Assembly: GCA_964187785.1 (NCBI GenBank)
Contig: OZ076409.1
Location: forward strand, 2,232,001 to 2,296,000
DNA length: 64,000 nucleotides
Source: Amphiscolops sp. MND2022
Taxonomy: Eukaryota
Direction of reading: 5' to 3'
This document shows, piece after piece, positions 6,928 to 64,000 of the stretch. The first letter of the stretch is position 1. Each line of letters begins with the position of its first letter. Below the pieces are notes generated by a model. That model was not told the origin of the DNA. It saw nothing but the letters and a program-made list of their open reading frames with translations, and searched no databases. The translations under genes were made by a program, and so were the position numbers.

Positions 6928-7180
6928 CTGGCGTGGGTGACCACAACTGGGAGTCCGTGGTCCAGACCCAACACGGACAAGTGCAGGAAGAGGGGGATAT
7001 GGGGGGTCCAGTCGAAGCCAAACTCGGTGATGAGGAGGTGACTGCAGAGGATGACGCTGGCGAAGCACCGCTGGAGGGCATACATGCCGAACGCGTAGTT
7101 GTTGCCCACTGTCGGGAAGGACAGAGACCCACCACCCCCACCGCCATTCAAGGGCTCTGCTGTGGAAGAGGAGGAGCTAG
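6928..7180 (-). CDS. fry: furry exon (SSSSSTAEP...LQRCFASVIL...DWTPHIPLFLHLSVLGLDHGLPVVVTHA)
   Basis: Acceptor ctttgcag, donor AG|GTTAAT; strong FRY-like DW..HLP..LH...LGLDH motif. Confidence 0.9.
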
Positions 7181-7372
7181 CTGCAAAGAAACAACAACCA
7201 GCTCTCATTATATATCACGCTCGCATAAACACGTCGTCGGAAACAGGTTTGAGTAGAGCTTTGTAAAAAATTCATGTAATAAAGCAACGTATACAAAATA
7301 TTGAAAAATATGAAATTCATTAGACGTCATAACTGAAAACTATAGAATTTCATTCGATTGTCTATGATCGTT

Positions 7373-8160
7373 TTTAGCGGCGCTTTTAGAATAGAAAAGC
7401 AGGACTATAACAGTCACTCGTTTTTATGTTTTTCTTTAAGACAGACTCGAATGCGACGAAATTTTTGTTCAACTAAACGAATATCTCTGAAACGCATCTA
7501 AGTTACTGCAAATGGTCCCCCTTTCATTTTCTCCTCTTTAAACGTAACATACAAAACCGGACGAGACTAAAGGGTCCCCTCCGATCGATTTTTTTTCGGC
7601 ACTGTGAGACTTTTTCGAAGATTTTTCATGTCTCCAAAGGATCCCCTTCAATTTTTTTAAAAAAGTTGCAAGAAATTGGATGTTAAAATAATAATATTAA
7701 TACTTCAATTTATCAGAGGGCATAAATAACAGACGATAAATTAAATCAAACAAAACGAATTTACAAAGAAGCCCTTGAAAAGGACCCCTAAAAGCACTAG
7801 GTCCCCTTTTTACATTTTTGGCACTGTGAGAGGGTGGGTTTCAAAATTCTCATTTTTCATCTGATATTAGGTTTTCTATTGCACCAATAATTTTTTCAAC
7901 ACTATTCGAATTTTTGATATTATATCCGAAGTGAAGCCCTATATCCGAATTTTTGAAGTTACATCCGAACTATAATGCGTTTTACTGAAAAGCACGCGGA
8001 AGTTCGAAAACAAGCGAACTCATTCATCCCAGCACGAAATTTTGGGATGCTTCGACACGTTTGTGCGAGTTTTTCATTGAAAAATACTTCAGCATACTTC
8101 AAACACTTTGCGCTTTTCGAGCCTTAAGTGGGGCGCCGACTTGAGACGTTCCTGTCTTGT
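7373..8160. mobile_element. HINE family A copy (opposite orientation) with a ~110-bp foreign insert near 7688-7800
   Basis: tttagcggcgctt... hairpin to ...ggcgccgacttgagacgttcctgtcttgt. Confidence 0.7.
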
Positions 8161-8649
8161 TATTTTTACAATCTCTTTAAAACAAAAGTTCATATTCGTA
8201 TAGGAGTTTCGAAGTAGAATGACAGCAAATTATGCAAAACGAACGATCTTTGTCAACAACAATGAACATTGAACATTAAGCAAGGCCTTTTTAGGGTTAT
8301 TTTTAACGAATTCAAAGAATATCTAGATATTTCCAAAATATGAAAGATTTTGACGTTTCCGGGATTCGAACCACTTCTAACGGAGTCCTAAACTAGCGGT
8401 CTAACCCTTCGGTTTAGCGGTTTCTATTTGCTTCAAATTTTATTCCTTCTAATTATGCCAACAATAACAATTGAAAAATTTTCATTGAAGGGACATCACT
8501 GAATTCATTCAAAAAGGCTCCTCGCTTTTGTTTTTGGACAAGAGTATCACATCGACGAAAACAAGAGATTCTGTGTTTATCATGTCTCCATCAGGGAAGT
8601 GTAACTAGCGAATATTTCTGGAACTCCGTTAGTGGAACTAACTGGAAAC

Positions 8650-10960
8650 CTAGACATGACTCGCTCGTAAATTTTAGTCATGTCACATGGCAAACAAATA
8701 CCGACTGCGTCACAGAGACGAAGAAACAAATTGCAGAAGTACCAGACTCTCCTGGTTATTTGACCATAACAAACAATTCCTCTTCGAACCCTGGTCCCTC
8801 AGGGGGAGTTCTTTTAGTTCTCGATGTCAACATCAAGCCGAGCGTTTTCAATCTTCAAATCGAATCGAAAACCAGCATTCGACTTGGGCAATTTGTAACG
8901 TTTCGAGCAAAAGCATTCTAGTAGGGGGTTTACTGCCGTCCAAATAGTATAGAAGAAATGAGAAGAGTTCTCTATGAAATTAGATTAGCGATAAAAAAAA
9001 TTTGGGCGTGTCCAATTTTCTTCTTGGCGGCTTCAATGCAAGGCATCCAAGCTGGGGCGACAAAAGCAATGCGCAAGGGGAAATCTTGAACGATTTCCGA
9101 CAACAAGAGACATCATAGCTCTTAATGATGGGGAGCCCACATTCACATGCACAAATGGAAAAAGCGTAATCGACTCGGTTATATGCAACGCCAATCTACA
9201 CAGGCTTTTTGCGGCCTCGGAATAGACTATTACACTGAAATGTTCACTGGCGACCCAAACAGAGGCCAATACCCAGTTATTGCCACATTTGATATCGCAG
9301 GAAACGGCACATCCACTCATGTAAAAGACCTCAAGAAAACCGATTGAGAAAATGGAGGGAAACACTGGAAAATTGCGTTCAATCGCGATGGCTTAAAATT
9401 GACGAATGCCATGATGCTACATGTTTATGGGGCATCTTGCTGCAATGTATCAGCGAAGCAGCCAACCTCACTATATTTCTCAAGCAAATCACTTTACAAT
9501 CAAAACCATACTTTAATGAAGAGTTGAAAATGCTTTAATTTCAACACCGAAAAGACAGGAAAATAATGAAACTCAGACCGGACCCCTTAAACACCTTCAA
9601 TTATGAAACCCTCAAACAAGAATTTCCGACTACCTCGATGAAATCCAAAGCTGAGCATTATAAAACTTGTGCAGAAACCCTGAACGTCAGCAACGGCTCA
9701 GATTTCTGAAAAGCCAGAAAATTTGTTGACTCGTACCAGAGATACAATACCAATGGTATGTCTTATTTCAAATGGCAAAGTTCCAGTAACGCTGATAAAT
9801 TTGAACATCTTTACGTTTTTCTCCGACAGTCGCCTCCACAGAAATATGTTTGATGAATCTTGGCTGAGGAATGTCGAAGACAAACTCACGGCAAATCTAC
9901 ATCAGTATTATGTGCAACCACTGAGCATACAGATAAGCGAAGAAGAGCTTGACAACGCTCTGAAGGAATCGCAAACAAGCAAGAAGTCCTACGATCCAGA
10001 TGGCATACATCCACTCATGCTCCGTCACACCGGAACTTTCTTTAAAATTGCCTGTCTCATGCTTTTTAACCTCTGTTTACATGCAGGCACCTACAATTGG
10101 AATTTAAATCAAGTCATTTTCCTCCGAAAACCTCACAAAGAAGACTACAATATCGCAAACACTTACAGACGAATTACACTCACTTCATACGTAGGAAAGC
10201 TGTTTGAACGCATTATAGAGAGACGATTGGGAAATGACTTGGAGGCGAAAGGGCTGATCGATGACAGCCAAGAAGGATTCAGAAAGCGGAGATGCACTGG
10301 TAGATGCATTTACAAACTCGTAGATAATATTCAAATATTATTGAGCAAGGAAAAGTAGCGGCTGCCCTTTTCATCGACCTCGAGAAAGCATTCGACTCGA
10401 TTTGGATTGACGGTCTCATGTATAAACTCCGTGAAGCAGGAATAAACAGCTACATTCTGAACATCATTGACCATTATCTCCGAAACAGAAACGTCTACAT
10501 CGAAACAGGCGAAAACCGATCAGAAAGCTTCAAGCCAAAAGTTGGCCTCCCTCAAGGAACCATTCCTTCTCCAATTTTCGTTTATCTTCTACATTGCAGA
10601 AATTTTCCAAGAATGCAAAGGTAAAACTGAAAAGTACGCTGATGACGCCACACATGTTTCAGCAGGTGACTCGATGGAAGAAGCTCTTTCGCATCTCCAA
10701 AAAGATTGCGAGGAAATCACAAAACGGATTGGAAAGTGCCGTCTTAACATCTCGGGGCCGAAAACAAAAGTTGTCATCTCATCTTTTCAAATATCTGTGA
10801 AGAAATCCGAGAATCTACAAAGAATATAGTGTTGCAAGGAAACACGATAAATTTCACGACAGAGTCAACAGCGCTCCGTATCACAATCGGTAACGAATTG
10901 AATTTTCGAGAAATGTTCAAGAAAAGCAGAAAAAGCCATGGGAGTTTTGGAACCTCATGT
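8650..10960 (+). mobile_element. Decayed non-LTR retrotransposon (LINE) ORF2: AP-endonuclease and RT remnants
   Basis: GGFNARHPSWG (EN); SYDPDGI, YRRITLTSYVGKLFERII, QEGFRK, FIDLEKAFDSIW, GLPQG, KYADD (RT); many stops and frameshifts; boundaries approximate. Confidence 0.88.
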
Positions 10961-11119
10961 ATACTGAGAATACATGAGTATCTGCAGTACTGCAGTCGAG
11001 AGGCCTGTTCAGTTCAGTTCAACTCAGGGATGGGAGCATTTAAATGTTTTGCTACCATTTCGGCCCAAGCTTCACCTTATTTGGTATAGAGGAGATAGAA
11101 GCTCTAGGCCACGTTTTTT

Positions 11120-11650: not shown

Positions 11651-11845
11651 CTTGAAGGTTGTTTTGTTGGGTGTGAAGGCCGGTTGTGTTTGGGTTGGGT
11701 GGGGGGCCGAGCACGATGCTGGCGGCCAGGGGACAGAAGAAGAGGTTGTCTGGCAGGGGGAGGGGCTTGGCCTGGTGCTCGTTGCACCTGTTGAAACACA
11801 TCTTCCACACCAGCAGCCACGAGTTGATGTCGGACACCGGAGAAA
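11651..11845 (-). CDS. fry: furry exon (SPVSDINSWLLVWKMC...KPLPLPDNLFFCPL...NNLQ)
   Basis: Acceptor ttttag, donor G|GTCAGC; PLP.P...F..PL motif. Confidence 0.85.
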
Positions 11846-11989
11846 CTAAAGTGACAACAGCAAACCAAACAAACTAGAGGGTAGTGTAGAAGAACAACTA
11901 TGGATCTTAAACCATTGCAAATTAAAATAAACAAACAAACAAACAAACAAACACTGAGAAAATTGTCATTGAATGCGTGTGATTTTCGG

Positions 11990-12405
11990 GTGTCAGGACA
12001 TCTCAACCTATGCAATTTCACCGTTGCCATTTCAATCTATTGCATTTTCAACCGTCCGCAATTTCAACCTAAAGTAATTTTGGCTAATGGATCCTAATTA
12101 GTTACATAATTATTTTGGTGGTTTTAACTTTCATACATTTCTAAATTCAAATATGCTAATTTTCACACCAGTTTTGATATGTTTTGGCTTTTTCATCAAT
12201 AATTACCAATAATTAGGGATGTTTGATTCATTAGTAATTATGGTACTGAAATAATAGCTCAACTGAATGAAGACTATATAGCCAAAATTAGTTTAGGTCG
12301 AAATTGCTGACAGTTGAAAATGCAATAGGTTGAAACTGTGAGCGGTTGAAATGGCAACGGTTGAAATTGCATAGGCTGAAAGTGTATAGGACGAAATGTC
12401 ATGTA
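11990..12405. mobile_element. Foldback-type MITE with long TIRs built of short tandem units (ggttgaaa); partial copy at ~20375-20490
   Basis: gacatctcaacctatgcaatttc... mirrored by ...gaaattgcataggctgaaa...gaaatgtc; TSD not resolved. Confidence 0.55.
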
Positions 12406-13180
12406 TTATTTCGCCATGATTTGTATTACTTTGGATGAAAAACGAGGGACTACACTGCTAAATTGAATCAGCCGCAATTTTCTACCATCTGGTTTCTCAA
12501 GATCGGTGCTCTTTGCGTTGCGTGAACTGAACTGAAGTATTACGTAACAAATATTTCATCGAATAGAAGCCGCAGCTTATAGCTTCAACTTTCCATTGAA
12601 ACTGCCGCTCAAACTGAGGGCTGCTTCTATTCAGGGGTGATCTTTATTCGGGGACGACTTCTATTGAAAGAAGTCCATACGGTATCCATGTTGAAGCCGA
12701 ACTTTAAGAATGAAGAGCAGAAATGGATGATGAAGAATGTATTAGCAACTAGATAGCAATGTGAAAGGCAACAGCAAATGAATATCTGAACTTTATCGAT
12801 GTCTAGCAATTTTGACAGGTGTTAGTAAATAAACTGTTCACACTTATGCGTTTTGTCTAGCACTAAGGTTAACTTTCAATGTCAATCTATCACAATCGGT
12901 GGTTTCCCAAATGACATAAATGCAAATAACATAAAAATAAATTAATTCCCAGAAAACATAAAAGTACATGAATTCCCATTTAACATAAAAATAAAATATT
13001 ATTATAACGTAGTCAGATATGTTCACATACCCCTAGTGCCCTAAATGCAGGAGCGAAGCGGAGCGACGTGCCATATGGCCACGCCTCAATGTTGCTACTT
13101 GGCGAAGGGAGCGAAGCGACCGAGCCATACAACAAATATGCAAACCTTTTCAAATAACTCAAGTTCCAACATATTGGCTG

Positions 13181-14415: not shown

Positions 14416-14690
14416 CTGGATTGTTGTTGGCACTGAAATTAGCAAAAGAAGTGGGTCTGGAAGATGCCCTGGATCCAATGCCTGCTGCTGCTCCTCCTCC
14501 TCCCGCCCCCTTCAGAGCCCCTTTTCCCGCCACCCTCTCAGAGTTGGAGCCCGCGTCCTCCTTCTCTGACTCATTGCCCCCTGTGTTGACGGAAGCAACC
14601 CCGCCCCCGCCCGGGGAAGAAGTAGAGGCGACTGCAGACATTGCTGTGGTGACAGCTGCTAAGGGGATACTGTTTGTCTTCTGGTGGTGT
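14416..14690 (-). CDS. fry: furry exon (HHQKTNSIPL...FSANNNP)
   Basis: Acceptor tgttgcag, donor G|GTACCT; phases 2/1 fit; Gly/Ala/Ser-rich. Confidence 0.8.
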
Positions 14691-15488: not shown

Positions 15489-18400
15489 CAGGGGCGGTAA
15501 TATTACACGGACATGACAACTGAAAAAGCACGGAAAATTTCACGAACAAATACACTCTTGAAGGTTACCACAAATTAGTAACCTGTAATAGGTCTGACGG
15601 AAATAGAGGGGGAGTGGGACTCTTTATTGATAAAAGGTTTGCCTACCAAGTACAACTGAAAGATACTGTTCATGAATGGTTGATAGTGAAAATTATGTAT
15701 CCCTTCGAAGCAATCATTTGCGTCACCTACCGCAGAGACAAAAAGTTTTCAAAGTCTCAATATTGTGAATGGTTAGAACTTGAATTAACAAGATTGCGAG
15801 CGATCAAGGGCAACGTTTTCGTCTGCGGAGATTTCAATATCGACCTTCTAGTCCCAATTATTCACTCGACAGAATTACAGGACATTATGAGAATCAATAA
15901 TCTTGAACTCAGAAGTCCTTTAGAAGTGACAAGAGCTCAAGAGAATTCAAAAGCTTGCTTGGACCACATCTATTCGGATAATCCTGTCAATGAGAATCAT
16001 GTTTATCATAGTACAATCACTGATCATTTCATGGTTTGGGTCAAGTTCGAAAAACGACTCTTTTCCCCCGGGAAGAATAATTGTCTCTCGTAACTTGAAG
16101 AAGCTCGCGAAATATCCAATCTTGGGAAAATTTAAGAGTCACATAGAATCGAATCTGCACTCAGTGAACTGGGAATGTATTGAAATAAACGATGAAGTGG
16201 AATTATTGCAAACAACCATTTTAGCTGCACTGGATCATTTTGCTCCGGAGAGGCCGGTTATTAAAAAACACAAGTCATGGGTCGACAACAGTATCAAACA
16301 ATTAATCTGGCAACGTGATAAGTTGTATAAGAAAGTATGCCGCCCACCTGATGATGAAGTTTTGAAACAGCGATTTAGAGACTTGAGAAATCGAACTAAG
16401 TTGATAATTAGAAAAAAGAAAACATGATTTCATCAAGGAAAAGTTCAAGATCATTGGATCGGATAGCAAAGCAATCCATAGTCACTTGAATGGAGTACTT
16501 GGTAAAAGAAATGAATCAACAATGCCGTTGCTGTCGAGGGAAAAAAGATTAGATGATTTTAACAATTATTTTGCAGCAGTTGGCTTAAACAATCAAAAGA
16601 CGATTGACGTGAATAAAATGAGTTTCCCACTCTCCCCGAGTGTTCAATCGATGTTTCTTCTACCAGTTAATTGTTTGGAACTTTGTAATATTATACAAAA
16701 ACTCAAGAATAAGAATTCGTTTGGCCCCGATGGAATCAGTAACAAGGTACTCAAACTCTGCTTCAACTCAATTATTGAACCTCTGCAAATACTAATCAAC
16801 CGATGCATGTGCGAAAGAAGTTTCGCGAAAAACCTAAATATAGCTAAAGTGGTTCCAATCGACAAAGACGGAGACAAAAGTAAATTTGACAACTTTAGAC
16901 GACCTATCTCTGTTGTCTGGATTGGCGAAAATTTTTGAACGAGTGATTTATAATCGCATGGTTTCGTTTTTGCATACCTTTTGTTTGCTTGATGAAAATC
17001 AATTCGGATTTAGACGAAAAAGGCAAACAATCGATGCCCTTGCATGTGTAATAGAATCAATCATATCATCAATAAGTTTAAAGGAAAATGTGTGTTGTAT
17101 CTTCTTGGATCTGAAAAAAGCATTTGATACAAAAGACCACCGGCTTTTTTTGGAGAAGTTGTACAACTTAGGTTTCAGGGGCCCTGTTAACAAACTGATA
17201 CTTTCTTATTCGAATGACCGATTTCAATTCATGCAGATTGGAATTGAATTTTCGGAAACAGTGGCAGTCACTTGTGGGGTACCACAGGGTTAGGTATTGG
17301 GACCTCTTCTTTTCTTGCTTTTTGTGAATGACCTTCCGTATCGCATTAGCGCCAAAGTGACGATGTTTGCCGATGACACAAATGTTTTAGTCAGTCAGAT
17401 CAATTATCTTTGAACAACTCACTTCACACGATTGATGAATGGATGAAGTACAATAAACTAAAATGCAATCTTGATAAGTCAAAGGCGGTAATCTTCGGTA
17501 ACAAAGAACACGTACTTGAAAGCTTGAAGTCCGAAAGGATTGTATTGAAAGAAGCCTCAATTGTGAAATATCTGGGTGTTCTAGTTGATGAAGAACTAAC
17601 ATTTAAGGATCACGTTGAATTGGTCAAGAAAAAAGTGAACAAATGTTTCTATGCTGTGTTGAAGGCACGTCAAGTGCTGACGCAATCTCAGACGTTGGTC
17701 TACTATAAAACCCATGTCAAACCAGAAATTCAGTATGGAGTGCTCATATATGGAGGAACCATGTATTCGAATTTGCAGTCCATTTTGAAGATGCAAAAAA
17801 AGATAGTTAGATGTATCTTTCACCTAAGCTTCTCAACTAGTGTCAAGGAAGTGATGAACAGTAATAAAATTCATACTGTTTATGAACTTTATTTGTATGA
17901 AATTACAAAAATCATGCTGAAATGCCTGAAAAATGAACATTGCATTGAGTTTCTTATTTCGATGATAACCCAAAAACTACGTCTTGTTATGAACTACGGG
18001 TGGCAGAAAGAGCACATGTTTCAATAACCCGTAACAAGCATTGTAAGAATTTTTTATCACACAGAGTGCCGAAGTTTTTCAATAAACTGAATTCTTGGGG
18101 AGTCCTTCCGAATAAAACTTCACACGAATCAATGACTAATGGTATGATTGATACTTACTGTCATAATTTCATGGATTCTTACATTTTAGGAAACCAAGAC
18201 CTAGTTGATTTTCTCTTTGACTTGAACAAATGAGTGCCACTGCGGGCTGGAAAGGGGAAAATACTTTCAATTGATCACATTTTGAATTTATTGAGTCCGG
18301 AATAGCTTTTTATTTTAAAAAAACGGAGTCGTTTTATAACTTGAAACCATCGTAATGTATTTGTATGGTTGGTGGTGGTGAATCCACCCATCAAAAATTC

Positions 18401-19254: not shown

Positions 19255-19480
19255 CTTTCAGTTGTCTGGTAGAAGTCCGGAGGCAGGGTCGCGTGTTTCT
19301 CCCTGTTGGCTCTGGGGACTGGAGGGGAACTGAGATCTACAATATTGGACACAGCCTGACTCGCAGTCGATTTCGTCACCGTAGCAGTAGAAGGCATGTT
19401 TAATGAAGCAATTTGATTGGCTGACGACGGCTCTGACGACTTGCTTCGACCACCCGAAGCGCTGCTTGAAGTGCTCGAAC
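19255..19480 (-). CDS. fry: furry exon (Ser-rich: SSTSSSASGGRSK...LPPDFYQTTE)
   Basis: Acceptor tttttag, donor AG|GTAAAA; open frame, phases 1/2 fit. Confidence 0.8.
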
Positions 19481-21552: not shown

Positions 21553-24500
21553 CAATGTATTATGCGCTTTAAGCTTTAAGCATTTTTTACATAAGCGCAA
21601 TAAGCGGGAAAAAACTAAATTTTCTGTCGCTTATTGTTACATGTATTAAAAATGCATTAAAATGCGTATTACGTGTTTTAATTGCGAGGGAATTCACACG
21701 TATGCAGTTTTAAATGCTGTTTACATGTATTAAAATAGGCCCCTCCGGGGCTCAGTACTATTTCTGCTTTAATCTTTATTTTTTTAAAACAAAAAATCAT
21801 CAATAAAAGAATCATATCTGGAATACCAATACACTCCTGTTTAATCATTACTTAGAGCACAATTAATCACTGTACAAGTTTACACCGCCTTTAATTCTTC
21901 TCGGACTAAAGAAAATATAACTAAGCGTAGACGAAGTTTCGCATTCGCATTTGAATGCAGGCGAAGCTCTCAACGAACGAATAATTAACACTCATTCGCT
22001 TCATCTCAATGACGTCAGCATACGAATGGATAATTACCACTCGCTCGTTCTATCGCACTAGAATTGAATTGTTGTCGGCAGCTTTCCCACGCTTACACTC
22101 ACTGCCGAACAAAATATCTGAATTATTCAGTAGGACGAAATTTGACGACTGAAAAAAAAGGACCAACTTTGAGGTTACAATAACATTCCTGCTAAAGCAG
22201 AAATATTAAAAATGCGAGGGAAATTTCATTCCAACATACATGTATTCTCTCAACTGCATCATAAAATGTGAACAAGCGACCTAACTTATTACAGTCACGA
22301 GCATATTCTATTTCGTCCACTCTCATGAAGCTGCGCAATACAAAATAACACTTTGACACATTAATACAGATTTGAACCCGCCGATTTCGAATTTCACCTT
22401 CATTCTTCATTGCAATAAAAATTAATCACAATTTTTGAAATAAAAATTCTTTTTGCAGCCTTATTTTATAGATTTTAAGGTATCCGCTCTTTGAATTCTT
22501 CGGATTATTCATGAAAATTACTAAGATTGAATTCAATAATTACTTTTAGCATAGATTATTATAATTATAAATTATTGCGATTATTTTTTCAGATTCGCAA
22601 TGGTTCTCGATTATGCGAAATATTGTATTAATTAATTAATTGTATTAACTGGCTCGAACCTTGAAACAACAGCGCCACCGTTCACAAAGCAAGGAAAAAT
22701 AACGGAATCAGTGATTGATAAGTTGATTGGGCGGGGTGGTTTACCTGTTACTCTGACTACCAAGAAATGGTTTATTGATTTTATGGCAGATGTGGAGCTT
22801 CGTTATTCATGCCCCACGTATTCGAACATTATTCAAAACGTGCAGAAAAAAAGTGATGCTATTCGTGCTAATTTGGTGGAAAACATAACATTACAGTGCA
22901 CAGGAAGCTTTTTGCTGCTTTTCGTGGAATCCGGGACACGAAAATTGAGAAAAGTCGTGGAATCCAGGACAAAATTTCTCTTTGATGTTAAGCGTGTCTT
23001 GGATTCCACGACAGTGCGTGTCCTGGATTCCACGCCAATACTGCTGCAATAATGACACTTTTGCCGCTGCTCTCTGATTGGTCCGCTGATTTTGAGTAAT
23101 CATTTTAAATTAATTCTAAAATTTATATTAAGTTTATATCAAAGGAAATTGTTTCGATTGACACGAAAAATCCAAGAAGTACGAATAGAGATACTCGTGA
23201 CTGGTACCAAAAATGAAGCATGTCATCAAATAATGGCAGATTGTGATGTTTCTCCAAGAATTGCTACACGGGCGTACTGCGGCTGATTTGAACCTGGTAA
23301 TTCGGAATAAGATGGATCTACTGGGAGTTCGGAAAGTTCCCTACTCTTTTTCGACGGACAACTGCAGTGTTATAAAAAAGCATTTCAGAATATTGTGAAA
23401 AATGATTTTCTCCCTTTTTTTTCATGAAAATTCGGAGGAAGAAGATGTGGATTTTTGTGAGGACTGTTTTTTTGTTGAACATCAATTTGATATACCACCC
23501 CGGAATTTGTTGAATGGCTTGGTTGTGCAGCGCATATTCTACAGCTTTGCGTGGGCGATGGACTGAAACAAGTGGGCGACTACATGAGGTTGAATTCTGC
23601 TGTTGTTAAGTGCTCCAAAATTGCTCAGCATGATCACAGGGCCAGAAAATTTCATGCAAGACTTAATCGACGGAGAAAAATAAAGAACGATGTTCGCTGG
23701 AACTCAACAGTGACCATGATAAATTCAGTTTTGAATAATTTTGACACTATTAAAACGGCGTTGATGGAAGAACAGCTTTTGGAATTTGTGATTTCAAATG
23801 AAGAAAAAACTTTTGACAAATTTGGCAGACCTTATGTTTTTCTTTGATGCAACAAACGTACTCCAAAAAGACGGTGTAGTAACTATCAAAAAGGTAATAC
23901 CATTGCTTATACTTTTAGAACGCGGTCTAGTGTCAATGCCTCGAACGCAGCCTTCATTAAATGCTGTAAAGGAGGCCTTATTGAACAGTATTCGCAAACG
24001 ATTCAATTCTATGAAAACATCTGAAATTCATATCATAGCTACTATGCTTGATCCCTGTGCCAAACTGACATTCTGTGGAAATTTGAGTACACATTTTTAT
24101 TTTGATATCACGCGATGTCGGGACATTTTCATACGTAAACTTCGCGACTGTGATCTGACAAATACCAATATAGTGGATGATGCACCTATAAGCATTCCAT
24201 CTGGGTCCAGAAAAGGGCTTTTTGATTTTGCTGATACAATCCCCCAGCCTGTTTCTACATTAGAGAGTCGAGCCACTGCATATTTGTCGTCAGAGACGGT
24301 ACCTGCCTGCAATGTGGTCGAGTTTTGGAAAAATTATCCAGCACCTTTTCAAAAGATGTGCAGCCAAATTTTGGGATCTTCGCCCGACACAAGCACCGTT
24401 GAGCGACTGTTTTGAAGTGCTGGTGGCTTACTTACTAAGATGCGAAATCAGCTCAAATCAGACACTTTGGAAAATTTGCTTCTGTTGAATGTTTTAAAAT

Positions 24501-25595: not shown

Positions 25596-25612
25596 TAAAT
25601 GACTTTGTTATA

Positions 25613-25780
25613 CAGTCAAACTCGGATAAAAGAAACTCATTGGGCGGTGAGAAAAGGGTTTCTTTTATCCATAGTTTCTTTTATCAGTTGTCTATTAACG
25701 TAGAAAGTTTGACTTGCATAAAATCGGAGGAGTGAAAACGTTTCTTATATCCGACTGTTTCTTTTATCCGAGTTCGACTG
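25613..25780. mobile_element. Tc1/pogo-type MITE
   Basis: TIR CAGTC(A/G)AACTCGGATAAAAGAAAC, TA TSD. Confidence 0.85.
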
Positions 25781-25835
25781 TATGACGAGTGAGTGAGTGA
25801 GTGATAGATAGTAGGTGTGAGTGGTGGTGGCGTGC

Positions 25836-26002
25836 CTTTGGCGACATAAGCGACGACGCTCTTGGCAGCGGCCAGCAGTTTGGGACAGCGGAAGGAGATG
25901 GCGCTCATCTGGAGCATGAAGCGGAGGATGATGGCACAGTTGTCATGGAAACTGTTGCACAGACATTGCCACACTTTCTTCAGCGAGTCCCCGTGGTCAC
26001 AA
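25836..26002 (-). CDS. fry: furry exon (CDHGDSLKKVWQCLC...SVVAYVAK-G), GC donor
   Basis: Acceptor ggtgtag; phase-1 end at AAG|GCACGC joins GA-AGC of next exon. Confidence 0.85.
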
Positions 26003-26814: not shown

Positions 26815-26979
26815 CTGAAGTGGACGGTGATGTAGAAGAGGTTGTTGAGGATGCAATCGGTGGCCAGAGTACAGCCCCAGCCGGTGGCCCAGCTGAGAGG
26901 GGTCAAGTGGAGGGTGGGGTCACGGCAACATCCAGAGGACCCACTGGTCGCAGCTACAGTGCCGCCCCGAGGCATGAAA
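26815..26979 (-). CDS. fry: furry exon (FMPRGG...GWGCTLATDCILNNLFYITVHF-S), probable GA donor
   Basis: Acceptor ccaccag; GWG...LNNL.Y.T motif; phase-2 end at CAG|GAACGC. Confidence 0.82.
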
Positions 26980-27655: not shown

Positions 27656-27741
27656 AAAAGTGACACTTTAAATCTAAAGGTCGCAACCACAGCCAAACGA
27701 GGTGGTGTGAAAAGGAGCGAGTTGGTATTGAATGATAATGC

Positions 27742-27937
27742 CTGGTGGTAGCCGAATACTGTTGGTGATTAGGGGGAGGGGAGTTTTTGCCCCCGCTGAC
27801 TGCGATGGGGGAGTTCGGTGTGGGCTGGGGCATGAACGAGGGCTCTGTCAGTTCTATGTTCTCCATCCAGGGCAGCAGACACTTGAGCAGAATCTCTCTG
27901 CCCGCCACTGACGTGTTTTGGAATCTGCAAGAGGCCT
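27742..27937 (-). CDS. fry: furry exon (EASCRFQNTSVAGREILLKCLLPWMENIEL...); 3' end ambiguous (27742 with GC donor or 27760 with GT donor)
   Basis: Acceptor tttttcag; LLPW..NIEL motif; both candidate donors are phase 2 as required. Confidence 0.8.
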
Positions 27938-28748: not shown

Positions 28749-28933
28749 CAGAGAAGATTCCGAGAGTGAGTTCGGGTCTGGCGCGACTGAGTTCTTTGGA
28801 GAGGTGGCGCTGGGTCTTGTAGTAGGCAGCCGGAGTGGCAGCCAGGAATGACTCATCTATATCCAGGGCCCCCGAACTGCGCACATCCGAAGCGATGTCT
28901 TCACGCTCTTCGTTCTCGCCCTCTCGCAAATCA
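28749..28933 (-). CDS. fry: furry exon (DLREGENEE...LSKELSRARPELTLGIFS)
   Basis: Acceptor gttccag, donor G|GTTGGT; PELTL.FSE motif spans the junction. Confidence 0.9.
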
Positions 28934-32228: not shown

Positions 32229-32472
32229 TTGTAGTCTTTTACGAGGTTGTTTCCGTCATGAGCGAGAGCGGCTACGTCTATTGCACTGAGGAGTTTGTTG
32301 CCCAGAAAATACAGCAGTTGCAGTGCCATCTCGCGGATACAGAGGTCACTGCTGTCGGAGAAGAAGAGAGCCAGAAGAACCAGAGAAGCCGCATTTGTGT
32401 CCAGACATTGCAGCTCGTAGCAGTCCATGAGGGAACACACGTTGATGATTGTTTTGAAGCAGGCGTGACTCA
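32229..32472 (-). CDS. fry: furry exon (SHACFKTII...IREMALQLLYFL...VKDY)
   Basis: Acceptor ctttccag, donor AA|GTGCGT; phases 1/2 fit. Confidence 0.88.
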
Positions 32473-33913: not shown

Positions 33914-34136
33914 CAGCCAACGAGTGGAGGTCGAAGCTCTGGGCGAGGAGCCACTTGAAGAGGATAACGTTGGAGGAGTTCTTCCGGAACAGCTTCTCGA
34001 TCGTGCAACAGCCCAGCTCGTACACCTGGCAGTTCTTGGAAGCCAGCATGTAGCTGAGCCAGGTGTAGATGTAGCTGTCTTCACATAAGAACGTGTTCCG
34101 GTCATCCGGCTCGCTTCCCGCCACAGAACACATGGC
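33914..34136 (-). CDS. fry: furry exon (AMCSVAG...YIYTWLSYMLASKNCQVYELGC...FDLHSLA)
   Basis: Acceptor ttgcag, donor G|GTGAGA; FRY-like motif. Confidence 0.9.
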
Positions 34137-36164: not shown

Positions 36165-36422
36165 CTGTAGTGCAGCCAGCTCCACGTCCGAGTACTGGGG
36201 CTGTTCGACGGAGGGCGGGGCCTTGCCGTTGGCTATCCTGCCGAGGGTGCCGCTCCAGGTGCTGGTGAGGTCGAACAGGGTCCTCTGGATCTCGGAGCTG
36301 AGGGTGCGCCCCGAGACACTGCCCCTGTGCTGCTCGGGGGGCGCCGTGCTGCTGATCATGAAGTGGATCATCTGGGAGAAACACATCTTCATATCTCGCA
36401 GCCCACTCTCCGTCATCTCCGC
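36165..36422 (-). CDS. fry: furry exon (AEMTESGLRDMKMCFSQMI...DVELAALQ)
   Basis: Acceptor aaacag, donor CAG|GTAACT; 86 codons, phase 0/0. Confidence 0.88.
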
Positions 36423-37658: not shown

Positions 37659-37923
37659 CTGTGCATGTTCCAAACACTGTTTGTACGAGTCTATGAAGTC
37701 ATGGAAGAAGATGGCCACTGAACTGACGACCCCATTGCTGCCCCTGGTGGCCGAGGTCAACTCGGGGTCAAACAGACACTGGGAGATGACCCCTCGCTCG
37801 GAGATCTTGGCCAGGATGCGCACCAACATCAGTCGCATCTCGGCGCGCTTCTTCACGCGTCTCTTGTCGGGGCGTCTGTCTGTCACTTCACGCACGAGCG
37901 ACGTGAATTCATCAACTGCGTCT
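37659..37923 (-). CDS. fry: furry exon (DAVDEFTSLVREVTDRRPDKRR...CLEHAQ)
   Basis: Acceptor tgtgacag, donor CAG|GTCAGT; conserved RRP..KRR..LR..L.RI motif. Confidence 0.9.
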
Positions 37924-41980: not shown

Positions 41981-41992
41981 CTCTTCCCTTCT
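41981..41992 (-). promoter_or_regulatory. Polypurine tract AGAAGGGAAGAG
   Basis: All-purine 12-mer directly abutting the 3' LTR on the minus strand. Confidence 0.85.
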
Positions 41993-45347: not shown

Positions 45348-45460
45348 AATGAAATCCTTGTATAATATCCAACTCTACGAATATACATTCAAGTTGGAAT
45401 CCAGAACTCGAAAAAAAATGTTGTAAAACGTAACCAGTAAAAGAAAGCAAAGCAAAGCAA

Positions 45461-45479
45461 AGCCCACCCAGGAGCGCCA
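45461..45479 (-). promoter_or_regulatory. Primer-binding site TGGCGCTCCTGGGTGGGCT (tRNA-Asn-like)
   Basis: Starts with TGG 1 nt after the 5' LTR; complement AGCCCACCCAGGAGCGCCA resembles the 3' end of animal tRNA-Asn(GUU). Confidence 0.8.
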
Positions 45480-45480
45480 C

Positions 45481-47533
45481 TGTAAGAAAATTTAGCTACT
45501 TGGGTCGGAGAGAAATCCCAAGGCTCAACTCTTAACAGAAAGGTTTTGATTTTGGTGAGTAAGTTTCGTTCTTGCTTCTGCTCATAGGACTAGCTTGACA
45601 CTAGTTTCTCTCCAAATTGCTCTATCGGCTCTATATTCGCAATGAGACTGTAGGTTAGAATGATCGAGTTAAGAAATTGATATAAAATCACAGAACACGA
45701 TGAAAACAATCTTCCAATTGATTTCTCAGCGAATAACTATATATCACGATCCAGCCAACTGAATCAAACAATCGTCAAGTCCCGGACTTGTACAATTTCT
45801 GTCACTGACTCCCGGAGTTAACGACGACCAGTTACTCCAGCTAGTTCGAATCTCTTGCCCCCGCCCTGAAGCTCAACTGAATTCTAGCTCTCTAACTCGG
45901 TTGTCGAGAAGCGCGAGTGTTAATCCGAAGAAGTATCTTGTCTCCGCGAGACTCAACTTGCTCCCAGCCTTCTAACTCGGTTCTGCCTATTCCATTATGT
46001 TCTAATTCCGCCTCAATTATATTTGTTCGTCGCACGTGTTTCTGGTCATCTCATCTTGACTTTCTATCATACTTGACATTTTCGTTACATACGGGGCGTC
46101 GGCGTCCTAAATCTGCATGAGTCTACCTTCACGTTTACTATTCCTTTTATGGCATGGTGAACGCGTCTAATTATACTTCGACTAAACATTCTTTGCCAAC
46201 AACGATAAAAAATTCACGTCTTGTCCGAAGTCCACATTTCAATAATAATTCAAGTCGCCCGAGATATTTCTAATATCGAGACGATTGCTCAATAACCTTC
46301 AACTACATGGTTTACATGTTCTCTACGTGTAAGGGGTACTTTTTCGTCCTTTTGGGCGCAATGCATCGCGAATCGTTCCGCCTGACTGAAATGCATAAAT
46401 TATCACTTAAAGATACTGATTTACATGTTTTATCGTAAGTTTCTCTATATGTTCCGGGGTCACATCTAAAATGACCTTGAGATCCGTCAATGACCTTGAA
46501 GTTATTTGCCATCATCCAAAGTTGCTACATGCCAATTTATATCGTCCTAGGGTTAATGGTTCCCGAGTTACACGCTATGCGTATCGTTTGTTTACTTAAG
46601 GCGGCTACCCCCGCATGGGTTATAAATACGGTTTCATTCAGGTTATAAATCGACTACATTCATCATTCCGGTTCGTTTGATATATTACAAGCCAAGGTCA
46701 AATGTCATTTATCGGTCGGGCCCGCGCGTCCGGTCCCGCGTGCCTTAAACAAACATTACTCCGCGCGTGGTGGACCGATCAATGTATCTTTCATGTATAT
46801 TACTTAGGGTTGTTAGGTGAACATCTTGGGTAAGTTTCATGATCTTCGGGTCATCCGGTGGCTATTTACACAACGTTCCGGGTTTATTTACTTAGGGTCC
46901 GTGCTCCTCTTACACGCGTCGTGGGTGTCCGAAAATGTGCGCAAACGGCTTAATATCATATGGGCTATCGATCCTATATATAATACGACTTATCCCGTGC
47001 TTGGCCGACGAGTTCGTAGGGGGGTCGACCTAGGTCACTTCCGGTGCTAATAGCCCGGGACTGGGGGTTCCCGGCTCGGTTTCGTTTTTATGGATCAGTA
47101 GCATAACAGCTCAGGTATACGTGTGCCAAATTTCAAGTCCCTACGATAAATAGTCTTTGAGAAAAACCGTTTGGGGGGGGGTTTAAAGATTTGTGATGTT
47201 TGGTTTTTCATAGTGTATCTTAGAATATTTTCGCTTGGAAGTGGGACTTAGTAAAATTCGCTCCAAGTGATCAATTTTGACTTAGTCGATTCGAATCATT
47301 TCATCGCTGACGTCACTCGCTAACTTATTAATGTTACCTAAGACGTTTCGTTTACTAAGTAAATACCTAATTTGCCAAATTAGCCATATCGATGCACGCT
47401 ATTGTCAGCCTTTTCAGCTGTGTTCAGTGTTCCGACGGTTTAAAAACGAGATTAACATAGTTCCATCTATGTTTTAAGCTTCGCGCAAAAGGGATGGGAT
47501 CTTTCTAAAACACCAAAATCTAAAATTTCCACA
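45481..47533 (-). repeat. 5' LTR
   Basis: Near-identical to 39928-41980; adjacent to PBS. Confidence 0.95.
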
Positions 47534-48628
47534 CCAAGGCTAAAAGGAGATTAAAATTTCATCAATTTTACAGCGCCAAAAAATACCCGAAGGGATACGC
47601 GTAAGCCTCGAAAACCATTCTCCCCCAACTGAAAACAGCAAAAAACCCATTCTTTCTCAACGGAAAACCTTAAACAGAAAATAGAAGAAAAAAAATTCAA
47701 AATTTTTCGAAAACATTTTTGATGGTCTCCGGTAAGTCGCAAAGCCTTGAGGAGTCCTCTCGCAAAACGTTTCGTTTCTTGTAAACATTGAGCAGGGGCT
47801 TCGGTGAAAACAAATTTTAAAAAAGTCGCATAGAAAAAAGATCGGTCTTTAAAAAAACGGTCTTTTAAAACTAAAAATTGAGAAAAAAATTTCCGTTTTT
47901 TTTGAAGTTTCCGCTAAGTCGCATAGTGCCAAAAAATGTGAAAAAGGGACCCTTTAGGATTTTATAACATTCGTTCTGTTGCAAGATATCCAAAAAGTGA
48001 AAGGAGGACGCTTTGGGGACATTAAAAAATTTTAAAAAATAAGGGAGTCTAAAAAATTTTTGAAAAAAAATTAGAATTTTGAACAGTCTCATAGTGCCGA
48101 AAATTCTGAAAAAAAGGACCCTCTGGGATTTTTTAACATTCGTTCTCTTGCAAAATATCAAAAAAATTGAAAGGAGGACTCTTTTGGGATTTTTAAAAAA
48201 TTTCGAAAAAAAAGTCTCACAAAGCCGAAAAAGTCTCACAAAGCCGAAAAGTCTCATAGTGCCGAAAAAAGTCAGAACCTTCTGCTTCGGAATACTTGTA
48301 AAAAAATTAGCGCATACCCACGGCTTCGAACACGAAACCTCTGGGTTGAAAAGCAAGCATCTTACCACTAGACCACGAACGCGTGAAACGTGCGAGTTGC
48401 CGCGTGAAATCAGAGAGTTGTCGCGCGGAAAAAAAAAGCACCCGCACTTTCCCATAACACTTGCTTATCGCAAGTGTAATCAAGTTCCATTCGTTATAGG
48501 TGTTATTGGACAATGAAATTGAAGCGAGTGGTAAACAGGTAGTGTGATTTCAGTGAATTCAACTCGATCTTTTCTGTTAATCCCCCACCCCACTTAAGTG
48601 GTCAAGCGAAATTATCATTGAATTAATA

Positions 48629-48935: not shown

Positions 48936-49094
48936 CTGAGGGCATGTGCACTGGTGAACCCGATAGCCTGGACCGACACCTCCTTCAGGTCCGAGTGCTC
49001 TCCCCGCAGAATGGGGATGATGGTGTGACGTAACAGCTGCCCTATGCTCTCCCTCTTCTCCACCACAGCCGCTGTCGAAGTACCTGTACCCCCA
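48936..49094 (-). CDS. fry: furry exon (GGTGTST...IIPILRGEHSDLKEVSVQAIGFTSAHAL)
   Basis: Acceptor ttggcag, donor AG|GTTAAT; FRY-like motif. Confidence 0.88.
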
Positions 49095-49982: not shown

Positions 49983-50986
49983 ACACAGAGGCGAAGCCGT
50001 GCTTCGCAAACGCTTGCGAACTTTTGAAGAAAACCAAATAAGCGATATCATAAGGAGAACCCAAGGGTAAAAGGACATTAAAAATTCATCAATTTTACAA
50101 TATACAGCGCCAAAACATACCCGAAAGGATACGCATAAGTCTCGAATACCATTCTTCCCCCAACTGAAAACAGCAAAAAACCCATCTTTCTCAACGAAAA
50201 ACCTTTAAAAAACAGAAAATTGAGGGAAAAAAATTCAAAATTTTTCGAAAATATTTTTGATGGTCTCCGGTAAGTCGCATAGTGCCGAAAACCTTGAGGA
50301 GTCCTTAACTCTCGCAAAACGTTTCGTTTCTGGCAAAAATTGAGGAGGGGCTTCGGTGAAACAAATTTTTTAAAAAAGTCGCATAGAAAAAAGCATAGAA
50401 AAAACACCGGTCTTTTAAAACAACAAAAATCGGATATTGCGTGCCGGACCCGAGAAAACCTAATTTTAACACGAAAATTATTCCTTTTGAAAAATGTCAC
50501 AATGCCGGAAACTGTGAAAAAGGGGACCCTTTGAGATTTTTAACATCCATTCTGTTCAAAATTTCAAAAAATTGAAGGGGGACTCTTTGGAGACTTCAAT
50601 AAAAAATTTTCGAAAAACAAAAAAATGAGAAATTTTAAGGGCAGTCTCATAGTGCCGAAAAATCTTAAAAAAGGGACCCTTTGGGATTTCTTAACATTCG
50701 TTCTGTTGCAAAATATCAAAAAATTGAAAGGACTCTTTGGGGAAGTTTCAAAAAATCGAAAAAAATGTCTCACAAAGCCGATAAGTCTCATAGTGCCGAA
50801 AAAAAAGAACCTTCTGCTTCGGAATACTTGTAAAAAAAACAAGCGCATACCCACGGGTTCGAACACGAAACCTCTGGGTTGAAAAGCAAGCATCTTACCA
50901 CTAGACCACGAACGCGTGAAATGAGAGAGTTGTCGCGAGGAAAAAAGCACCCACACTTTCCCATAACACTTGCTTATCGCACGTGT
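49983..50986. mobile_element. HINE family C copy with tRNA-derived segment (~50846-50913, minus)
   Basis: Same termini as 39846/48477; TGGTCTAGTGG A-box and GTTCGAACCC B-box-like. Confidence 0.7.
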
Positions 50987-51283
50987 AACAAAAGACAAAA
51001 TGGGACAAAAGATATAGTTCAAAAAGCACTCAAAATTTCAAACGTTGAGACCTCAAAACAAGCTACAATTTTAATATAAAAACTAACTTCATTGTAAGCT
51101 ACATGAAATTTCAAAAACCGTTTGTCTACCTCTTTCAACAAACTTCAGAATTTTTCGAGTTTTCATGCTTTTCAATTCAAATCATTTTGCTTGATGTCTG
51201 TTTTTTTCAACAGAAAGTGTAGTTGTGTAAGTGTCAGATGGGTGATCATGTTTACCATACATGCCATGCCCAACCATACATAC

Positions 51284-51417
51284 CTGTTGGGGGGACTGGA
51301 AGTGGACGCACAAAGGGCAGAAGAGTTGCATGACGTCATCAGCAGGGCGGGGTCTTCGTTGCAGGGGCCACCCACACCCACACCCCCACTCGCAGGTACT
51401 CTAGCAGGTCCCCCTGT
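51284..51417 (-). CDS. fry: furry exon (TGGPARVP...STSSPPN)
   Basis: Acceptor ccacag, donor AG|GTATGT; phases 0/2 fit; low-complexity linker. Confidence 0.75.
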
Positions 51418-53102: not shown

Positions 53103-53401
53103 TTGAGGTGGGCCAGAGGAGCTGGCGGCGGCGGCGGCCGGTGTGACGGAGGTTGAGAGGGTGGCCTCTAGGGTGCTGTTTCTGCTCACACACGAGGAGG
53201 ACGTCCAGGCCCCACACGCCACTGTGAGGTAGTTGCGCCACAGTCCCAGGTAGTACTCATGAATGGGAGAGGGCCGCTTCGGGGTCCGTCTCAGGGTGGC
53301 AGCTGTCACTTCCTGTGGGTTTGTCTGGTCAATGAGAATGCTCATGAGGTTGATTCTGGTGCTCACGAAATTCCACGCGTGGTTCACCGCGTCCACACAT
53401 C
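53103..53401 (-). CDS. fry: furry exon (CVDAVNHAWNFVSTRINL...LGLWRNYLTVACG...GPPQ)
   Basis: Acceptor cctttttag, donor CAA|GTATGT; strong FRY-like motifs. Confidence 0.9.
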
Positions 53402-56788: not shown

Positions 56789-57098
56789 CTGGCACCATGA
56801 GACAGTAGGGACTGTTGATGAGGTGGATGATGCAATAGAACCAGGGGTCGAAAGTGTCTCTGAGGTTGCACGCCGCGCTCTCCTTCAACACACAGTAGTT
56901 GCCGCCACTGTCCCCCGCTCCTGTTGCTGCTGCTGAGGATGATGACGTCACAACTGATGACGTCACGGGCACAGTGGAGGAGGAGGAGTTGGTGGCACAC
57001 TCGAAAGGCAGGTCGTAGCTGGCATTGACACACCACATGGGAGAGGTCTTCTCACAGAGCCAGTTCAAATCCGGGGCAGCTGCCGTCGCTGCCCAGAA
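56789..57098 (-). CDS. fry: furry exon (FWAATAAAPDLNWL...FDPWFYCIIHLINSPYCLMVP-G), probable GA donor
   Basis: Acceptor gtttgtag phase 0; next exon needs phase 1, given by CAG|GAAAGT; DPW motif. Confidence 0.8.
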
Positions 57099-58454: not shown

Positions 58455-58608
58455 CCGTTCGTTGGCGGATAGTTTGGGCAGCATCTGTTCCAGCACCGAG
58501 GGCAGTGCCCGGTCCATCCTGGCCACAGCTGGCACGAAGCCCATCGTCTGGGGCAGCCTCAAGTCACAAGCCAGCATGTGCGCCTCCTTCAGCAGCACAA
58601 CCGCCAGT
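58455..58608 (-). CDS. fry: furry exon (LAVVLLKEAHML...KLSANER)
   Basis: Acceptor ttgccag, donor CGG|GTGAGC; phases 2/0 fit neighbours. Confidence 0.85.
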
Positions 58609-59919: not shown

Positions 59920-60395
59920 TTTTAGTCGGTGCTTTATCCTTTGGAGGAAAAATGCCCGACTATAGCAGTAACCTTTTTTTTCTTCAGACTACAATCCTCA
60001 CACTGATCGGTCCACTTTTCAGAAACAATCCTGAAACCACCTAAGGCGCCAAGTCGGGCCAATGCAACCTTAGTGCAAAGGGTCCCCCTTTCGTTTTTTA
60101 CTTTTTCAAGGTAACCCAAAACCGGACGGGACTAAAGAGTCCTTCCTTTCGATTTTTTTTTCGGCACTGTGCGACTTTTTTTCGAAAATTTTTTTATGTC
60201 CCAAGGGGTCCCCCCTTTGAGTTTTTTGTTATTTTGCAACAATGCATGTTTATAAGTCAAAAAGGGTCCCCCTTTTACATTTTTCGGCACTGTGCGACAT
60301 TTTCCGAAAGAGAAAAATTGTTTTTCCGAAAAAAAAAATGTTTTGCGCTTTTTGAGCCTTAGATATAGCGCCGACTTTAGACGTTCTCGTCTTGT
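59920..60395. mobile_element. HINE family A copy
   Basis: ttttagtcggtgc... to ...agacgttctcgtcttgt. Confidence 0.72.
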
Positions 60396-60885
60396 TTCTT
60401 CCCATCAAGACATACTTTAAAAATCTGTTCATAACATTGGTTCGTGAACAACTTCCATTTCAATTCAAGTAAACAAACTCAGGAAATCGGGTGTGTGTTC
60501 TCTTAATATATCTTATCATATCATATAGGATCAAAAAAATGTTATCAACTAATTATTGAAATGGTGATAAAATTGTTAGATAATACATTATACATGATAT
60601 TCAGTAATTATAATATCATTAGAACTCTTATCATGATATTACCACTTCAAAAAACAAGCACTTTGATTGCTTAATGCCTTCATATAGTTGACCGTTCGTA
60701 TTTTCAATAAAAAACTTTAGTACAGGACGCGAACCCATGAACTCCTGCTTCTGAAGTTGCGTTTCCTGGAAATCGGAGTAAACCAGTAGGCCAAATTTAA
60801 AAATTTTTGACCCATGCAAAATTTATAAAAAGACGCTTCGAAGTGACTGAAGAAAAAAATTGCCATTATAAGAGTCGTGCACTTT

Positions 60886-61240: not shown

Positions 61241-61427
61241 CGTCGAGTGTTTGGTCTCAAATGGCAGAGAGTGCAAAGAGACAAGCCCTCCACTCTCCTC
61301 AGGGCACTGATGCACTGCTCGTTGTCGTCCTTCTTGAGGCTGTTAGACTTGGATTTGGGCGTCACGTTTTCAGCCGCCACATTAGAGAACATCAGGGGGG
61401 ACGCCTTGGTCGGAATCGGCGCCGGGC
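61241..61427 (-). CDS. fry: furry exon (GPAPIPTK...VEGLSLCTLCHLRPNTR)
   Basis: Acceptor ttccag, donor CG|GTTGGT; FRY-like VEG...LC...TRR motif continues into next exon. Confidence 0.85.
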
Positions 61428-62914: not shown

Positions 62915-63228
62915 GGATCTCTTTCACTATATCCCCCCTTACAGCAAAAAGGGGGAACATAGTGAAACGCTATTAAATGCATGTATTGCACATTCTAATA
63001 GCGCAGATCTGCTCTTATTTAGCAGCGCTTCTGATTGGCTGAGAGGTGATTTTGATAAAAAGAACCAATAAAAAGTGTGGATAGTTATGACGACATCAAT
63101 TGATTGACAGAATAGCATGAGAGATTAGCCAATAGGAGATAAATATAAATGAGCCACAAACATTTATTTTCTCTAGGGGGGACATAGTGTAACGAGTGAT
63201 ATAGGGGGGGGCATAGTGAAAGAGATCC
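62915..63228. mobile_element. Merlin-like MITE (copy of 20806-21130)
   Basis: TIR GGATCTCTTTCACTAT; TSD CCAAAACC/CGAAAACC (1 mismatch). Confidence 0.78.
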
Positions 63229-63533
63229 CGAAAACCATTTGTCCTTCGAAATCTTCAGGGGCCATGGCAAATCGATCTCCCAATGTAATTTTTGCTCTAC
63301 TGAAAAAACGTTCAATCTTATTGCTGGTGGGGGAACCCAAGAAGAATTATACCGTTTTTTCTCTTCCACTGCTTTTAGGGCTCTCGCGGCAAAATCTGTT
63401 TGAATTGTGGTATTATTATTACATAAGGTTAATGTGTACATTAACTCGGTACTAACATTCATTACATGTTAATAAAGGTTCCAATGCATTAACTTAATAC
63501 ATTAAATATAATGACATTTAATGCAAACTCATT

Positions 63534-63927
63534 GGTTACATGTCAAAATCTCCTAAGTCAAAATCTCCCAAGTTAAAATCTCCTAGACCTTAATCTCCTA
63601 GGTCAAAATCTCCTAAAATTAGAATAAAAGAAACTCATCGAAAAACAACTCGCCAACTTAATTGAAGCGGAAAGCTGTTCGCTTAGGAACAAAGGCTAAC
63701 CTCAATTTTCAACCATTTTCAAACTTAATTGCAAACCTTCACTCATTAGTCAATTATGTAATAATCTTTCAATGACTGTCTCAGCTTTTAATGCTTAATC
63801 AAAGTTACTTTCACACTATGAAATTCAATTTAGGAGATTATGACCTAGGAGATTTAGGTCTAGGAGATTTTAGCCTAGGAGATTTAGGTCTAGGAGATTT
63901 TAACTTAGGAGATTTTGACCTGATACC
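63534..63927. mobile_element. Foldback-type MITE with tandem aaatctccta units in its TIRs
   Basis: GG...CC termini, 8-bp TSD AACTCATT (63526-63533, 63928-63935). Confidence 0.78.
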
Positions 63928-63973
63928 AACTCATTTAATATTTATAAATCCCTGGTTAAGGGTTATAAGTTAC

Positions 63974-64000
63974 CGGCTGAGCTGGTGGAGACGGAGGTTG
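63974..64000 (-). CDS. fry: furry exon (truncated by window edge), ...TSVSTSSA-G
   Basis: GC-rich segment ending in donor G|GTAACT; phase 1 matches next exon start GC-CCG. Confidence 0.6.

Follow-up and report, generated by a model that had tools for sequence, protein, structure and literature searches.

Does every animal spliceosome insist on a T at the second intron position, or are there lineages in which this position has been relaxed? The question is raised by a window of 64,000 bases of animal nuclear DNA (C1:2232001-2296000, about 39% G+C), taken from an assembly of 1067 Mb (1.07 Gb) in 1929 contigs, whose minus strand holds the middle part of a large gene that continues past the window end and that we take to be Furry. 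GT is the near-universal rule at 5' splice sites (donors), and the published cases of dispensing with it are so far one copepod and the larvacean tunicates. An initial annotation of the window had proposed that several donors of this gene begin with GA or GC. We consider it likely that the GA, GC and GG sites described below, in Furry and in two other genes, are real 5' splice sites of U2-type introns, and that the major spliceosome of this animal tolerates A, C or G at +2 (GV-AG introns). Roughly one in ten of the introns sampled in the three genes (about 7-11%) seems to start without GT, and the relaxed +2 position is probably real and genome-wide.

Donor sites in Furry and in two conserved genes

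Candidate exons were read codon by codon and then chained by phase, which gave 18 exons (A to R, Table 1) running from 61427 down to 6928; joined, they read through 1262 codons free of stops, and through 1268 if exon L takes its alternative end. The 18 donors of this model comprise 14 GT, two GA (exons C and M), one GC (exon N) and, at exon L, a site that may be GT or GC, as the two candidate ends lie 18 bases apart and are scored alike by fragments from three relatives; this last is probably the further possible GC donor of the initial annotation. Of the modelled acceptors 17/17 are AG. The non-GT donors and AG acceptors of the initial annotation are therefore reproduced, on 18 modelled donors and not on 20; the two further exons that it had listed were not located, and no convincing exon was found at 61.5-64 kb. 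Its observation that non-GT donors follow exonic (C/A)AG, which several GT donors lack, also stands, as 4/4 non-GT candidates are so preceded and 6/14 GT donors have no exonic AG (ACG, CGG, CAA, CTG, CAA, CTG), the reported CG/GT, CAA/GT and AA/GT cases included (the slash marks the exon border throughout).

The donor and acceptor matrices used for scoring ignore +1 and +2 and derive from 51 reference-mapped donors and acceptors in the two other genes. On this scale the GA site of exon C reaches a flank score of 8.46, the highest among the 18 Furry donors, and its GT alternative -2.1; a score of at least 8 is met by 0.008% of the G positions on the minus strand of the window. Phase points to the same site: the exon D acceptor at 53401 needs one base from exon C, which the GA site alone supplies, and the GT sites near the end of exon C are in the wrong phase or require a poor acceptor, aatag/A. 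The exon D acceptor, tttcctttttag/GA, scores 7.89, the acceptor demanded by the GT alternative -10.2. At exon M the GA site scores 5.72, against -8.7 for the GT and -3.7 for the GC alternative, and at exon N the GC site scores 4.93, against -4.0 for GT; scores of at least 5 are met by about 0.4% of the minus-strand G positions. Exon O has an acceptor in phase with the GC donor of exon N but not with the GT close to it, and the acceptor of exon N scores 1.74 versus -2.39 for its alternative. We regard these sites as real donors because the 18-exon chain is open only with them and their GT alternatives score negative, and because the acceptors paired with them outscore the alternatives. The GA models also fit the spacing around DPW...HAW and LNNLFYIT...VW that human FRY would lead one to expect, which is a lead and no test.

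The name of the gene calls for some caution. A protein search with exon L as query gave six short fragments and one with exon J a single fragment of 228 residues; together the fragments P0001-P0007 match exons L, M and I-K, P0001 with 68% identity across three exons and P0002-P0007 over the exon holding LLKCLLPWMENIEL plus the adjoining one. These fragments carry no protein names, and we take them to be putative Furry (FRY/Mor2) proteins, a name given by no tool; exon A presumably resembles human FRY as well. No Pfam family matched any of 18 single-exon open reading frames (ORFs), a genome profile search gave one weak match to PF14228 (MOR2-PAG1_mid; E 0.2) about 35 kb further downstream, outside the window, and scanning metagenomes with exon C brought up no relative.

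Two conserved genes elsewhere in the assembly were mapped against reference proteins with a solver that takes every frame-keeping donor/acceptor pair between neighbouring tblastn matches and scores the spliced peptide against the reference, blind to the dinucleotides. Clathrin heavy chain (reference P0013) has 23 such junctions, of which 21 are GT, one GC (AAG/GCTAGA) and one GG (CAG/GGATGT); three junctions at which a non-canonical pair scored highest were set by hand to GT, with reasons given. The GG donor yields the peptide IEIYVQ/KVNP, and QKVNP is read in 108/108 of the homologues holding that stretch (of 120), whereas QGLNP results from the top GT-AG pair, whose score is lower by 10. PRP8 (references P0157, P0164 and P0154), which matches at a single locus, has 33 junctions, 31 GT and two GC. 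One of the latter, CAG/GCACGT, produces QLADGLQY, found in 69/72 homologues, the remaining three having QLSDGLQY, and its GT alternative produces QAPDGLQY, found in 0/72; the other, AAG/GCAAGG, produces YLKDGPY, found in 71/73 homologues, with FLKDGPY in one more, and its GT alternative adds 14 residues. That non-GT junctions restore near-invariant peptide motifs is a further reason for regarding them as donors. At least 24 exons spread over about 29 kb make up clathrin heavy chain (C8:23654866-23683758), and at least 34 over about 89 kb make up PRP8 (C4:84100663-84189100). Intron density is very uneven among conserved genes of this genome, RPB2-like genes having open frames of 836-854 residues, and RPB2 was left out as a test gene, its very long exons (an 854-residue open frame) being uninformative.

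Clathrin and PRP8 together thus have 4/56 reference-mapped donors without GT (three GC, one GG), and the probability of at least four is 0.015 at the animal average of 1.7% non-GT-AG introns (PMC7072748; this source, like PMC13326754 and PMC12639140, is cited here from extracts). The relaxation that the initial annotation had suspected beyond Furry is accordingly seen in other genes. Pooled over the three genes, non-GT donors number 8/74, or 7 if exon L ends at GT, and the eight sites divide into two GA, one GG and four to five GC, all with AG acceptors; non-AG acceptors amount to 0/73 of those modelled. The same annotation had inferred that exonic bases compensate for the loss of U at +2. AG/G is present at all eight non-GT sites, exonic AG precedes 8/8 of them vs 46/61 GT donors (one-sided Fisher 0.12, a trend only), and A stands at +3 in 7/8 vs 26/61 (p = 0.02). 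Because 8/8 follow AG and 7/8 have A at +3, compensation by the flanks is likely, with the +3 effect alone significant in this small sample, and the inference is thus partly borne out.

Spliceosomal RNAs and the weighing of explanations

The initial annotation had pointed to a change in U1, U5 or U6 snRNA or in associated proteins. The snRNA genes do not bear out the former. Among the U1 genes that pass the Rfam cut-off, 21 in number and all read, 13/21 are canonical over positions 1-10, and the base opposite +2 is changed in 0/21. The U6 ACAGAGA box is kept in 3/3 genes read (of 19) and U5 loop 1 in 4/4 genes read (of 48). Most of the 48 scored U5 matches lie in a tandem array at C6:35069340-35133981, many of them about 680 bases apart.

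We would place the tolerance elsewhere. Recognition would run through the standard 5' end of U1, with which CAG/GAAAGT would keep 7/8 pairs, since the exonic AG and the G at +1 are retained at the non-GT sites, as is, at most of them, the A at +3. More permissive here would be those later steps at which U at +2 is normally checked, owing to some protein factor or to a modified snRNA, the modification being invisible in the snRNA gene sequences. What can be read directly from the DNA is that three genes contain such sites, with the phases and strong flanks described; that splicing uses them, and in this manner, is what we predict.

Dedicated variant U1 snRNAs could instead read the non-GT donors, with no general permissiveness. 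Altered 5' ends do occur in 8/21 U1 genes (ATACTAACCTG three times, ATATTTAAACCTG three times, ATTCTTACCTG and ATACTTACTTG once each), and a U1 variant has been proposed for the copepod Eurytemora affinis (PMC7072748); yet in the standard register the base facing +2 is unchanged in every variant, ATACTAACCTG would rather fit U at +3, and Robertson describes canonical U1 in E. affinis (PMC5714493), so that we find this explanation rather improbable. As to the variants themselves, 20% of the mapped donors have T at +3, with which ATACTAACCTG would pair, and the three ATATTTAAACCTG copies have a common upstream sequence, tttaattgaa.

Minor-spliceosome introns and RNA editing can be treated together. 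U12 and U6atac gave nothing above the Rfam cut-off (best 27.4 and 23.2 bits) and U11 no match, 41-45 first-look candidates having been scored per family, by the procedure that readily found U1, U5 and U6; the minor spliceosome may have been lost, an absence that is weakly evidenced. The U12-type donor box, RTATCCTT, stands at 0/8 non-GT sites. Editing that makes GU before splicing is named as a possibility in PMC7072748, but by established chemistry A-to-I editing turns GA to GG, not GU, and GG is uneditable to GU. We give hardly any credence to either idea.

More has to be said for misplaced exon boundaries, that is, for ordinary animal splicing in which the true donors are GT and small exons have gone undetected or acceptors have been shifted. 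Several parts of Furry have diverged too far for alignment, and the relatives' fragments leave J-K and L-M unsettled; a segment that should lie between exons N and O was not found by ORF listing or motif search; and the solver's top score is sometimes a non-canonical artefact, such as CCA/GGTAGA in clathrin, which had to be overruled by hand. Against this rival, the GT alternatives at exons C, M and N are out of phase and their flanks score below zero, those in clathrin and PRP8 destroy motifs kept in 108/108, 72/72 and 72/73 homologues, and all eight non-GT sites carry AG/G; we hold misplacement to be unlikely. Base errors in the assembly might also put A, C or G at +2, as might rare alleles in the individual sequenced or the decay of a gene copy, since each case hinges on a single base. 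But such accidents would need to strike +2 of otherwise strong donors eight times independently, across three genes that lie on three contigs, and frames are open in all 18 Furry exons and in all mapped exons of clathrin and of PRP8, the latter at its one locus; this strikes us as very improbable.

Several points nevertheless weigh against a permissive major spliceosome. All exon boundaries, and with them the donors, are predicted from genomic DNA; a look-up of RNA runs covering 25600-35599 listed none, and the hits of the protein searches include no transcript-derived protein of this species. GA donors are confined to Furry, where they are judged by phase, signal scores, short fragments of relatives and the human FRY sequence, and there is none among the 56 reference-mapped junctions of clathrin and PRP8; the excess in these two genes is mostly GC (3/4), a class that all animals have at a low rate, with the one GG going beyond it. 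The acceptor of exon M is weak (-8.15). The GC donor of exon N is backed by signal scores and by agreement in phase with exon O, and the 6.4-kb intron N-O may hold undetected exons. Finally, the sample is three long genes with 74 donors.

Exons and intron contents of the window

Table 1. Exons of the Furry gene in window coordinates, with their splice sites, and positions of other recurrent features
Feature	Position	Strand	Splice sites	Basis
Exon A	61241..61427	-	donor ACG/GTTGGT, GT at 61240-61239	ORF and phase chain
Exon B	58455..58608	-	donor CGG/GTGAGC	ORF and phase chain
Exon C	56789..57098	-	donor CAG/GAAAGT, GA at 56788-56787	sole phase-1 donor fitting acceptor 53401; flank 8.46
Exon D	53103..53401	-	acceptor tttcctttttag/GA (7.89); donor CAA/GTATGT, then (GTCT)n run	
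Exon E	51284..51417	-	donor CAG/GTATGT	
Exon F	48936..49094	-	donor CAG/GTTAAT	
Exon G	37659..37923	-	donor CAG/GTCAGT	
Exon H	36165..36422	-	donor CAG/GTAACT	
Exon I	33914..34136	-	donor CTG/GTGAGA	I-J junction is top solution with fragment P0001
Exon J	32229..32472	-	donor CAA/GTGCGT; alternative CTC/GTAAAA likewise GT	
Exon K	28749..28933	-	donor CTG/GTTGGT	matches P0001
Exon L	27742..27937	-	end 27760 (ACA/GTATTC, GT 27759-27758) or 27742 (CAG/GCATTA, GC 27741-27740)	
Exon M	26815..26892	-	acceptor uncertain; donor CAG/GAACGC, GA 26814-26813	matches P0003, P0005, P0007 up to NNLFYIT
Exon N	25836..26002	-	acceptor gtggtgtag/T; donor AAG/GCACGC, GC 25835-25834	phase fits exon O acceptor
Exon O	19255..19480	-	donor AAG/GTAAAA	
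Exon P	14416..14690	-	donor CAG/GTACCT	
Exon Q	11651..11845	-	donor AAG/GTCAGC	
Exon R	6928..7180	-	donor CAG/GTTAAT, GT at 6927-6926; gene runs on beyond window	
Short high-copy repeat, example sites	5454-6700, 29129-29663, 37960-38400, 47550-48520, 50080-51040, 60045-60460			
Variant U1 loci L015-L017, L057, L058, L063-L065	contigs C3, C7, C12, C13			

The introns between these exons are crowded with repeats. The 11-kb intron F-G contains a long terminal repeat (LTR) retrotransposon at 39928-47524, whose LTRs of about 2.04 kb (39928-41971 and 45481-47524) begin with TG and end with CA, show at most 15 differences and are flanked by a 5-bp duplication, CCAAG; its internal ORFs lie on the minus strand at 43240-45374. 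On the plus strand we named by eye the reverse-transcriptase-like ORFs of two LINE-like elements (9684-10829 and 15524-18027) and a transposase-like ORF of hAT-like look (22636-24415). A short high-copy interspersed repeat fills the introns and leaves recurring ORF pieces such as ...RPKSAPYLRLKNSKRTSKCQ..., and a 38-base piece adjoining exon L is found at no fewer than 48 other places in the genome with 89-97% identity. The intron after exon D (53102-52995, minus strand) starts with GTAT, followed at once by some 25 units of a (GTCT)n microsatellite.

Comparison with known systems

The closest likeness is with Eurytemora affinis, in which GA and GG donors make up about 12% of introns, always after exonic AG and almost always with A at +3; these introns lie in long genes, U1 is canonical and automated gene models are broken (PMC5714493, Robertson 2017). 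According to the extract of Frey and Pucker, GA-AG introns are frequent among animals only in E. affinis and Oikopleura dioica, where they are flanked by AG and A (PMC7072748). The genome studied here agrees with E. affinis in the share of non-GT donors (about 10-12%) in the long, many-exon genes sampled, in the exonic AG before each of them and the A at +3, in the AG acceptors, in introns needed for a full-length protein, in the canonical U1 5' end and in the breaking of gene models, and this identity of donor context with that published for E. affinis and O. dioica supports the view that the sites are real donors of a permissive major spliceosome, as do U1, U5 and U6 motifs that are canonical in the way reported for these lineages. 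It differs in that GC is the commonest non-GT class here (4-5/8) and is called rare there (PMC5714493), and in that the copepod introns have RNA support, where ours are read from the genome sequence. Nor does the genome itself resemble the three published Eurytemora genomes, at 1067 Mb and a window of about 39% G+C as opposed to 521-671 Mb and 33% G+C in the extract of PMC12639140.

Tunicates offer the other precedent. They have GV/AG introns, the minor spliceosome is lost in larvaceans, and strict conservation of the snRNA motifs is described together with altered m6A on U1 and U6 (PMC13326754, Soo et al., in the extract cited). The mix of GA, GC and GG donors with AG acceptors and the conserved U1, U5 and U6 motifs recall O. 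dioica and other tunicates, as the U12, U11 and U6atac not found among the 41-45 candidates scored per family recall the larvaceans; unlike in Fritillaria, no acceptor modelled here departs from AG. The mitochondrial contig C1929 (14,704 bases) seems to depart from the tunicates. Its COX1 (11804-13138, minus strand) has TGA in frame 11 times and AGR 14 times, and the invertebrate code gives its best reading, with Pfam scores of 458.4 bits for table 5, 457.1 for table 13, 444.5 for table 9 and 436.3 for table 4, the first two being 1.3 bits apart. The 14 AGR codons stand at what we take to be conserved serines and not glycines, which would speak for the invertebrate and against the tunicate code. 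In a quick clathrin tree the genome has a long branch (0.45) and falls, with no firm placement, outside the clade of protostomes sampled (91% SH-aLRT), and the tblastn bit sums of 40 clathrin references against this genome are nearly equal.

Ordinary GC-AG introns of animals are U2-type with a strong flank consensus, as is AAG/GCAAGG in PRP8. Their share is usually below 1% in the extract of PMC7072748, in contrast to the 3/56 reference-mapped donors found here, which are accompanied by GA and GG. The GA donor of human FGFR1-3 is an alternative site of the major spliceosome whose use requires a canonical site lying six bases upstream (Brackenridge 2003, as cited in PMC5714493 and in the extract of PMC7072748). 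It is a precedent for a GA 5' splice site of the major spliceosome, as we predict here, but the three to four exon bases before our two GA donors hold no GT, position -6 lying beyond the stretch read.

What do these comparisons amount to? Relaxed donors of the same type are already published, and what is new here is another genome, unless the lineage proves to be of independent origin; the lineage specificity asserted by the initial annotation therefore holds solely as a habit shared with the published copepod and larvacean tunicates. Because the relaxation is seen in other genes, its warning about standard annotation holds good: annotation restricted to GT and GC would break many genes, truncating or splitting a sizeable share of the long ones in this assembly. 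At about 10% non-GT donors most genes of 20 introns would be affected, and GC-aware tools would still miss GA and GG. The component that enforces U at +2 is still open, and relaxed lineages keep canonical snRNAs, so that the cause is unexplained there too; another genome with the same relaxation is an extra point of comparison. It is tempting to go further and to see here an additional independent animal lineage, neither published Eurytemora nor tunicate, in which U at +2 is no longer required and the minor spliceosome is gone, in a large (1 Gb), intron- and transposon-rich genome, a proposal that we make tentatively and to which we give rather less than even weight. Were it true, the comparison of three origins, in the copepod, in the larvaceans and here, could pin down the factor that reads +2.

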